From NCBI RefSeq assembly GCF_013167455.1, contig NZ_CP038328.1: DNA of 64,000 nucleotides; one strand, 5' to 3'. Below, one piece after another: positions 33,801 to 36,800 of the stretch. Made by a program: the position numbers. Source of the DNA: Escherichia coli O157:H7 (GTDB taxonomy: Bacteria; Pseudomonadota; Gammaproteobacteria; Enterobacterales; Enterobacteriaceae). Position 1 is the first letter of the stretch, and each line of letters opens with the position of its first letter.

Positions 33801-36800
33801 AACAACTCTTGAAATGATTGTCTTTCACTACGACTGTACGTTGGATTCCATAAACCAAAACTAAGTACTTTAAATAACTTTTCAGCGCATGACATCTCAT
33901 CCCAGCTTTTTTTAAACCCAGAATTAACTTTCATTGCAGCATCTAAAACTAAAGATGCGGAGTCATTATTAAGTCCATTTATCATGAGAGATTCTCCTAT
34001 CTGGTTTGTAATGAACAATTTGGCAACAAGTATCATATAGCATCATATAGTGTCAATAATATACAAGATATTTATAGCGGGTGTTTTAAACGCATAGAAA
34101 GTTATTTTTACCTTCTGAAAAATAAGTGAAAATATTAATCTAATGATGGATAATTGATTGCAAGTGATGCGTCAGCCATAGTTTTTGTGTCTATGAAAAG
34201 GTTGTACTTATTTACATAAGTAATAGAATTTAGATAATTTTTTATTGTGACGATAAAATATATCATTAATGATTGATTTAGAGATACTGGCTTTCAGGAA
34301 ACTTATTTTGGCCTGTATATAATGTGATGATTACTAAAGTGGTACATTGATATCAGTTAGCTTTCCCTTTTCAAGTTGCCTTATCAAAGAATTCTCTTTA
34401 TAGAGGGGCGCATTGTTCTGATTAACATAAACCTGTTGTGGCATTACACCGATCGATAGGTGCGACAAAGAACAGGGTTAATGAATCTGTAACCAGTCCC
34501 ACCTTAGCGCTAAGCACTTTTGAATCACAGATCTTGCTAATCGTTTGTCCGACTTTAACAGAGTTAATGACGGCGATGATCTGATGCCAAGTAAAACGGA
34601 CTTGATGTATGGCAGATCCTCTTTCGCCGAATGGATATGGGCAATACTTCTTAATACGAATGGTACGGTTATGCGGGAAGAGACTAACGCGGTTACTGTT
34701 CAGCTATTTGTCCCTTGTTCCTTTTTATAATGCACCCGTTCCAGGTTAGTGCTGGCTGTAGCTTATGTCCGGGAAACAGCTAATAGATATATATACTCGT
34801 CATACTTCAAGTTGCATGTGCTGCGACTGCGTTCGCTTACCCCAATCACTTACTTATGTAAGCTCCTGGGGATTCACTCGCTTGCCGCCTTCCTGTAACT
34901 CGAATTAAGTAGAGTATAGTGAAACGGTTCAGCTTGGTTTTTATTCTGTTTTATTTGTTTATGCAATGAGATCTATCTTATAAAGAGAAACGCTTAACTA
35001 AATGGAAATGCAATTATTAAAGTCGTTTGTTAACGAGATGATTTTCTTCTATATCATTGATTTTAAATGGATTTTAAAAATATATGATTTTTTTGTTGAC
35101 ATTTAATGATAATGTATTTTACACATTAGAAAAAAGAGAATAATAACATTTTAAGGTGGTTGTTTGATGAAATAGATGTGTCCTAATTTGATAGATAAAC
35201 GTTATCTCACATAATTTATATCATTTGATTAATTGTTGGTCCTTCCTGATAAGGTCGCTAATAGCTTAAAATATTAAAGCATGCGGAGATTATTTATTAT
35301 GAATATGGAAAATAATTCACATACAACAAGTCCATACATTCAGCTTATAGAGCAAATTGCAGTTCTACAGCAGGAAGCAAAGCGACTGCGAGAGCAGGAA
35401 GTTCAAAGTGTAATTGAGTCGATTCAGAAGCAGATTACTTATTACAATATAACCTTACAAGAGCTGGGATATACTAATGTGCCTGATGATGGACTCGCTC
35501 GCCGGAACTCATCGAAAGGTGTTTACTACCGCAATGAAGAAGGGCAGACCTGGTCGGGCGTAGGCCGACAGCCACGCTGGCTTAAAGAAGCACTGTTGAA
35601 TGGAATGAAGAAAGAAGATTTTCTTGTGAAGGACACTGAAGAAGAAATAATACCGCTGAAAAATATTTAACATGAAATAATTAAATGATAACGATAACTG
35701 AGCTGGAAGATGAAATAATAAAAAATAAAGAAGCCGCAAATGTTTTTATTGAAAAAATAAACGACAAAAAGAACGAAATCCATGAAAAAATGAAACACCC
35801 TTTGGATAAAGTTACCTACAATGAAGCAAAGGAACTGCTCATTGCGTGTGATGCGGCAATTAGGACTATAGAGATAATGCGAATCAGGATTAATAATAAA
35901 TAGAGGATGAGTATTGTGAGCCAAACAAGAAATAAAGAACTATTAGATAAAAAAATAAGATCAGAAATTGAGGCGATAAAAAAAATAATCGCCGAATTTG
36001 ATGTCGTAAAAGAAAGCGTTAATGAGTTAAGTGAAAAAGCAAAAACAGATCCTCAGGCGGCAGAAAAATTAAACAAATTAATTGAGGGGTACACATATGG
36101 TGAAGAGCGAAAATTATATGATTCTGCCCTAAGTAAGATTGAAAAACTAATAGAGACACTGAGTCCAGCAAGATCTAAAAGCCAATCAACAATGAATCAA
36201 CGGAATAGAAATAATAGAAAAATAGTATGACAATTTTTAATAAAATAGACTATAACTATTATAAATTAATTAATTATCCAATCATGATGGTTCATGATGA
36301 ATGGCTAGGTGATTTAACCGGTGTCAATCAGGTCAGTTTTCGGCGTTTAAGAGAAACTAGTTCTACTCGTAATCAACTCAATAAGATATTGCGTCAGGAA
36401 ATACATGATAAAATTTCTGGTGTGGAATTATCTGACATAAATAAGGAAGGTTTTTTATATCAGTCAATTGGGAAAATAAGATTGCTTGCTCTAAGTAGTG
36501 CATTATTTGACATTCAATGCCCTGATTATATTTTCTCACGATTATATCGAGAAACTCTGATTAGAGAGATAGGATATCAAAATGTGAAGCAGTTATCATT
36601 CTATTGGCAGGGAGGGCAATGTAAACCAGAATATGGTGAAGAACGGTTTTGTGCTGAGTTAATAAAATACGGTGCAGGAAATTTGGAGTGGCTATTTGCT
36701 GATAATCCTTTATGGACCATAGTCAAATATCTTTTGCCGAAAAGTGGAGAAATAAAACCAACTCATATTAATGATTTATTTCTTAACAGACTTAATAAAA

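Follow-up and report, generated by a model that had tools for sequence, protein, structure and literature searches.

The enterocyte effacement locus (LEE) of Escherichia coli O157:H7 carries, in the long gap between the divergent genes espG and ler, a full-length enterobacterial repetitive intergenic consensus (ERIC) element, a 127-bp imperfect palindrome that sits at a TA dinucleotide. We analyzed this gap within a 64-kb stretch that represents the LEE (contig NZ_CP038328.1, assembly GCF_013167455.1; hereafter the window) and report the identity, boundaries, insertion polarity and lineage distribution of the ERIC, as well as its adjacency to an operator for Cra (FruR). The gap is very probably a composite, in which the ERIC is a near-neutral passenger just outside the LEE1 control region. 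Four parts would make up this composite: the espG control region; an ancient, decayed fragment of an IS3-family insertion sequence (IS), which would mark where LEE1 adjoins the espG-rorf1 module; the 127-bp ERIC, a miniature transposable element that entered at a TA in a single LEE lineage, to which O157:H7, E2348/69 and O111 belong; and the well-studied LEE1 regulatory region, which runs from the Cra operator through the P1 promoter and a long leader (with a minigene and a PdhR box) to ler.

The ERIC reads from TATAC to GTATA. Its boundaries were set by an alignment over its whole length with E. coli copies from three other loci, ybhI-ybhJ, psuT-yeiL and yajO-dxs; it differs from the majority sequence of the aligned copies at about six positions. 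The original prediction, made from the same DNA, of an ERIC between divergent espG and ler was therefore borne out, and the poor alignment that would have spoken against it was not seen, although the position then given, about 34760–34900, proved to be 20–30 bp too far left (Table 1). The sequences and the design of the primers ERIC1R and ERIC2 were assumed. ERIC1R matched exactly at 34856–34877 (+ strand) and ERIC2 with two mismatches at 34834–34855 (− strand), an arrangement that agrees with the reverse orientation predicted, and none of 100 shuffled sequences matched either primer. The minimum-energy fold of the element was one long hairpin on both strands (−47.1 kcal/mol, z −5.6, on the − strand; −38.1 kcal/mol, z −3.7, on the + strand). 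Its GC content is about 48–50%, compared with 16–30% for the DNA beside it, and on the ler side the GC content drops to 16–30%, in line with the AT-rich DNA that had been expected there.

In published descriptions, an ERIC is 127 bp long, has inverted repeats at its ends and TA at both termini with a TA target duplication, and forms a stable stem-loop (PMC2229807, including its Table 1; PMC3184786). The element in the gap has the length, the sequence similarity, the palindrome and hairpin, and the TA termini with duplication, and because its length, terminal inverted repeats, TA duplication and stem-loop fit the published description, it was assigned to this class. Like the ERICs known since 1991 as 127-bp miniature inverted-repeat elements of Enterobacteriaceae, the LEE copy is intergenic, and its identity to other copies in E. 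coli is about 95%; short, internally deleted variants are known among ERICs, and one likewise occurs at the LEE site. Of 5426 complete E. coli genomes, 5425 contain sequences 91–95% identical to the ERIC segment, at a median of six places per genome (at megablast sensitivity), and the 64-kb window holds a single copy. An Rfam scan of 32500–36500 (E ≤ 1) revealed no known RNA family. The sole match, to RF02818 (V_AS5, a Vibrio antisense RNA) at 34796–34919 (− strand), scored 36.6 bits (E 2e-5) against a gathering threshold of 96, which places the element outside that family. ERIC-like repeats present in Vibrio probably account for this match, which suggests that the V_AS5 family was built on an ERIC-like repeat, while the ERIC itself appears to be without an Rfam model.

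The comparison with enteropathogenic E. coli (EPEC) and other LEE sequences proposed in the original prediction was carried out by aligning the gap from O157, EPEC E2348/69, O111:NM, DEC9B (O26/O103-type LEE), O103:H2, a canine strain, E. albertii and Escherichia sp. MOD1-EC7003. The 1262-bp gap of the window was 100% identical to that of O157:H7 chromosomes, and O157, E2348/69 and O111 share an ERIC copy with 100% identity, consistent with the element having been inserted once. The O26/O103-type islands, the canine strain and E. albertii were empty: they carry a precise empty site, ...CTATA-TAG(C/T)G... (the dash marks the junction), and the corresponding O157 sequence is ...ATATA-ERIC-TAGTG.... 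Filled and empty sites differ by a net 125 bp at TA, as expected when an element of 127 bp duplicates a TA; with the insertion of 125 bp taken out, the junction reads ...ATATATAGTG.... Exactly the same site upstream of ler holds, in Escherichia sp. MOD1-EC7003 (L013:322–376), a short ERIC with an internal deletion that joins position 37 to position 107 (1–37 and 107–127 are kept).

The ler upstream region was identified in 696 complete E. coli genomes, 456 of which have the ERIC with both flanks; these 456 correspond to two high-identity lineage bands of the ler-upstream search (348 and 107 genomes) plus one further genome. About a third of LEE islands, among them the O26/O103 and E. albertii ones, lack the element, and some of these islands belong to recognized attaching-effacing pathogens. 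A search with Ler in one genome per species retrieved true LEE loci only from E. albertii and one Escherichia sp., and did not retrieve C. rodentium; the remaining matches, in Variovorax and further Betaproteobacteria, were to distant H-NS-like proteins. The clean empty sites and the distribution over the 696 genomes show that the LEE ERIC is a derived, lineage-specific insertion at TA.

The presence of an ERIC in the LEE has reportedly been described before. Elliott et al. in 1998 and Perna et al. in 1998 reportedly noted one in the LEE sequences of EPEC E2348/69 and of enterohemorrhagic E. coli (EHEC) EDL933, respectively, and Zhu et al. in 2001 are said to have found none in the LEE of rabbit strain RDEC-1. 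The element of these original papers is the same one at the same site, and no difference from the copy described here is expected. In our literature search for ERIC in the LEE, "Eric" matched only author names or typing papers.

Neutrality of the ERIC is suggested because islands without it occur in recognized attaching-effacing pathogens. The element sits on the distal side of all mapped LEE1 control elements and leaves their spacing unchanged, and it probably lies in neither the espG nor the LEE1 mRNA, a view that presumes no transcription across it. Some points weigh against regarding it as a passenger. A weak promoter-like site on the − strand (35099–35071) could drive transcription across the ERIC; the ERIC and the perfect Cra consensus occur together, which might point to a connection between them; and neutrality, while most likely, is argued from dispensability.

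The best-placed alternative involves transcription. The end of the ERIC is upstream of the ler ATG by 381 bp and of the mapped P1 start by about 215 bp, and the element is therefore outside the LEE1 mRNA; on the espG side, it is upstream of a conserved promoter-like site, the presumed espG promoter, by more than 730 bp. In Yersinia, ERICs co-transcribed with genes destabilize the mRNA in an orientation-dependent, RNase E-mediated manner (De Gregorio 2005, reviewed in PMC2229807 and PMC3184786), and this is the only well-supported function of an ERIC. The functionally studied Yersinia copies lie inside an operon transcript, whereas the LEE copy is upstream of both neighboring divergent promoters, and Yersinia-type mRNA destabilization is therefore probably inapplicable to it. 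Judging from the promoter positions, the co-transcription with espG or ler that an effect on mRNA stability requires is unlikely. The functional relevance through transcription or mRNA stability that had been considered for this element thus found no support, given its location outside the P1 transcript, its distance from the espG site and its absence from about a third of LEE islands. The original prediction had also allowed that mapped transcription starts might place the element outside any transcript, and for LEE1 the published P1 start does so.

In its fuller form, this alternative holds that the ERIC is transcribed, by read-through or from a divergent promoter by P1, and that its hairpin modulates RNA stability or acts as a small RNA (sRNA) or antisense RNA on ler or espG. 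We consider this quite improbable. Both strands do fold into a hairpin far more stable than those of shuffled sequences, co-transcribed ERICs are known to alter mRNA decay as described above, the weak − strand promoter-like site points at the element, and the sub-threshold V_AS5 match concerns an antisense RNA family. Against this, P1 and the conserved espG promoter-like site both fire away from the ERIC. A consensus scan of the region gave seven promoter-like sites, compared with 6.9 ± 2.8 in shuffled sequences, and no terminator-like site, and a 2016 review of EHEC and EPEC sRNAs includes no RNA from the espG-ler region; the islands that do without the element have already been mentioned. 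Separately, sRNA350 was considered as an RNA of this region and was rejected, as it corresponds to the cesF 3′ untranslated region.

The second alternative concerns the DNA to the right of the ERIC, where a Cra operator, AGTGAAACGGTTCA, begins at the last base of the element. It is the only perfect match in the intergenic region to the 14-bp Cra consensus RSTGAAWCSNTHHW quoted in PMC5829826, and about 0.6 chance matches are expected in the 64-kb window. Another perfect match, at 17183–17196 (− strand), is inside a 367-amino-acid (aa) open reading frame (ORF), is within chance expectation and was set aside. A Cra-like sequence, AGAGAAACGCTTAA, with one mismatch, occurs at 34984–34997 (+ strand), 66 bp downstream of the perfect site, in ERIC-bearing lineages only. 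We take the +1 position of the proximal ler promoter to be 32 bp upstream of the ler ATG. Cra binding to EHEC ler was previously located by electrophoretic mobility shift assay (EMSA) and DNase I footprinting "around -350 bp" from the proximal promoter (Njoroge et al. 2012, PMC3482499). In the same study (PMC3482499), the EMSA probe covered −450 to −255, and a ler-lacZ fusion from −393 to +86 was Cra-dependent, while one from −173 to +86 was not. With the +1 assumed above, −350 corresponds to about window position 34917 and the operator to about −349, which fits the published footprint.

The operator shares with the ERIC only the terminal A of the duplicated TA. This base is already present in the empty site, so the ERIC adds no new operator base, and since the ERIC is distal to the operator, the spacing between operator and promoter is unchanged. 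A perfect Cra consensus was present in all nine LEE upstream regions with a full or short ERIC and in none of the six without one (up to one mismatch allowed), though these 15 sampled regions represent only two or three deep lineages, approximately one evolutionary event, and coincidence is possible. The orthologous sequence has three to four mismatches in the O26/O103-type, canine and E. albertii LEE (the fragment is GCGGAACGTCTTAGT in O26/O103 and GTGAACAAAGTCAGG in E. albertii), and in Escherichia sp. MOD1-EC7003 the site is a perfect palindrome, GCTGAAACGTTTCA. Neither the Cra operator abutting the ERIC nor its degeneracy in O26/O103- or E. albertii-type LEE is mentioned in PMC3262186, PMC3482499 or PMC11508082.

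These observations raise the possibility that the ERIC aids Cra-dependent activation of LEE1 at the DNA level, as a GC-richer, cruciform-prone or bent segment or as a boundary to H-NS spreading, with ERIC and operator forming a lineage-specific module. We give this a slightly lower probability than transcription of the element. The contact between the two features, their co-occurrence in all sampled lineages, the EMSA probe, which takes in about 100 bp of the ERIC, and the higher GC content of the element within its AT-rich surroundings are in its favor. However, the −393 to +86 fusion keeps only the last ~45 bp of the ERIC and is still Cra-responsive, the element leaves the operator bases and the operator-promoter spacing as they were, other ERIC copies have unrelated flanks, and the co-occurrence is confounded by shared ancestry. 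That direct Cra coupling of ler to sugar availability is lineage-specific, like the perfect operator, which is confined to the ERIC-bearing LEE lineage (O157:H7, O145, O55, E2348/69 and O111), in its strongest form with the ERIC having helped to create or stabilize the site, is in our view unlikely. Direct Cra control of ler may be absent in O26/O103-type or E. albertii-type islands, as the degenerate sites suggest.

Further to the left in the gap, a decayed left end of an IS3-family element was found, consisting of the terminal region and the first ~28 codons of orfA. It was recognized through 74% nucleotide identity to annotated IS3-family transposase genes (blastn, distant mode), and in a tblastn comparison IHQVRFTWHQIIAVINSVKVGQTISKIC aligned with MRKARFTEHQIIAVIKSVEAGRTVKDVC. 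The orfA start codon ATG is now ATA, the frame is broken and stop codons follow; a Pfam scan of frame-corrected peptides from 34300–34800 gave no match. An intact IS3 has orfA and orfB and two terminal inverted repeats, of which only the left end and the ~28 degenerate codons were found here. Compared with IS3-family elements in general, the left end and the orfA N-terminus are recognizable, only ~150–200 bp survive and there is no right end, as in a fossil. The segment that holds the remnant (34400–34750) is about 44% GC. The remnant is present in O157, E2348/69, O111, O26/O103, the canine strain and E. albertii, that is, in all lineages sampled, and so predates the ERIC insertion.

This bears on the idea, also part of the original prediction, that the ERIC is a scar of island assembly, having come with or mediated the joining of espG-rorf1 and LEE1, which is very improbable: the ERIC does lie near an IS remnant, and the two modules on either side of it have a different arrangement in C. 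rodentium, but the idea is contradicted because the ERIC-less lineages carry precise empty sites, and with them the same espG-ler order and the same remnant, which puts the junction before the ERIC. The IS3 remnant fits such a role better, to judge from its distribution, and is a likely seam at which LEE1 and the espG-rorf1 module were joined.

Table 1. Features of the espG-ler gap and of its flanking genes (window coordinates).
Feature	Position	Strand	Basis or remark
espG, RefSeq start	32840–33985	−	longest ORF runs to 34036
Candidate espG (LEE6) promoter, TTGACA-16-GATACT	34029–34056	−	consensus scan score 10/12
Decayed IS3-family left end (terminal region and first ~28 orfA codons)	34531–34678, extending to ~34490–34690	−	74% nucleotide identity
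Full-length ERIC, 127-bp imperfect palindrome with TA at both ends	34792–34918	− (consensus orientation)	alignment, primers, fold, empty sites
Cra (FruR) operator	34918–34931	+	14/14 match to consensus; abuts right end of ERIC; Cra binding published at about this position
LEE1 P1 promoter: −35 TTGACA 35096–35101, 18-bp spacer, −10 TACACA 35120–35125	35096–35125	+	sequence and PMC3262186
Two-codon leader minigene, ATG AAA TAG	35167–35175	+	sequence; positions 144–152, translated (PMC3262186)
PdhR box in LEE1 leader, tgTTGGTccttCCtgaT	35234–35250	+	sequence as quoted in PMC11508082
ler, first LEE1 gene	35299–35670	+	ATG at 35299; ORF list and RefSeq annotation

In earlier work (Islam et al. 2011/2012; Njoroge et al. 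2012; PMC11508082), the LEE1 regulatory region has been studied as a system with two promoters, P1 and P2, sites for Cra, KdpE and PdhR, and a minigene, and the P1 hexamers, the minigene, the PdhR box and the perfect Cra consensus are all at the same relative positions here. The numbering of Islam et al. (PMC3262186) was converted to the window by adding 35023 to each position. In that work, the P1 −10 element TACACA was defined by mutation (up-mutations 99T, 101A, 101T and 102T), the transcript starts a few bases past the −10 element, and the leader is ~165–170 nt long (PMC3262186). The promoter originally proposed, TTGACA-17-TTACAC, is located correctly as far as its two motifs are concerned (35096–35101 and 35119–35124), while the published −10 element is one base further on, with an 18-bp spacer. 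P1 is invariant across all LEE lineages sampled, its hexamers are at the 16–18-bp spacing of sigma-70 promoters, and its functional evidence comes from PMC3262186. A generic promoter scan misses P1 because its −10 element is without the final T, and since promoter-like sites occur in the region at chance frequency, with no enrichment, the identification of P1 rests on the published experiments and not on the motif. Conservation of the sequence from ~35010 to 35298 extends to E. albertii, where identity is still 83%. At 35246–35256, just 3′ of the PdhR box, there is a single GATAAG in O157:H7 and a tandem, GATAAGGATAAG, in E2348/69, O111 and O26/O103, and with this 6-bp indel the length of the LEE1 leader varies between lineages.

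The divergent arrangement of espG (− strand) and ler (+ strand) is found in both the ORF list and the RefSeq annotation, and the gap between them measures 1262 bp from the longest espG ORF (start at 34036) or 1313 bp from the RefSeq start (33985). The promoter-like TTGACA-16-GATACT at 34056–34029 is kept in all lineages sampled, E. albertii included, and is probably the espG (LEE6) promoter, a role suggested by its conservation and position. Downstream of it, a Shine-Dalgarno sequence (AGGAG) and the espG ATG at 33985 (381 aa) are conserved in every lineage sampled. The start of the longer espG ORF (ATG at 34036, 398 aa) overlaps this conserved promoter-like site, and in the lineage of the canine strain and E. 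albertii this upstream ATG is not in frame; the 398-aa model of espG may be 17 residues too long. In O111:NM strain 08-4377, IS3-family elements (one IS1203-like and a frameshifted IS3 transposase) replace espG and the left part of the gap; the break is at about window position 34461, adjoining the old IS remnant, and the ERIC, the Cra site and LEE1 are intact. The O157 LEE is described as inserted at the selC tRNA gene (PMC5073101), and ARAGORN detected no tRNA gene in the 64-kb window, with selC lying outside it or having been missed.

For the most part, these results amount to a correct annotation of the gap, one that is sound but ordinary. Beyond earlier descriptions of the LEE, they add the exact boundaries of the ERIC, the empty-site junction, the frequency of the element over 696 genomes and its adjacency to the Cra operator. 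The ERIC provides a handy lineage marker for LEE types, and in islands of the O157:H7 type it shows where the LEE1 control region has its distal edge. That the Cra operator abuts the element and that it is restricted to certain lineages are the only points that possibly merit a bench test, and conclusions about Cra control drawn from O157:H7 may not transfer to O26/O103-type or E. albertii-type LEE.

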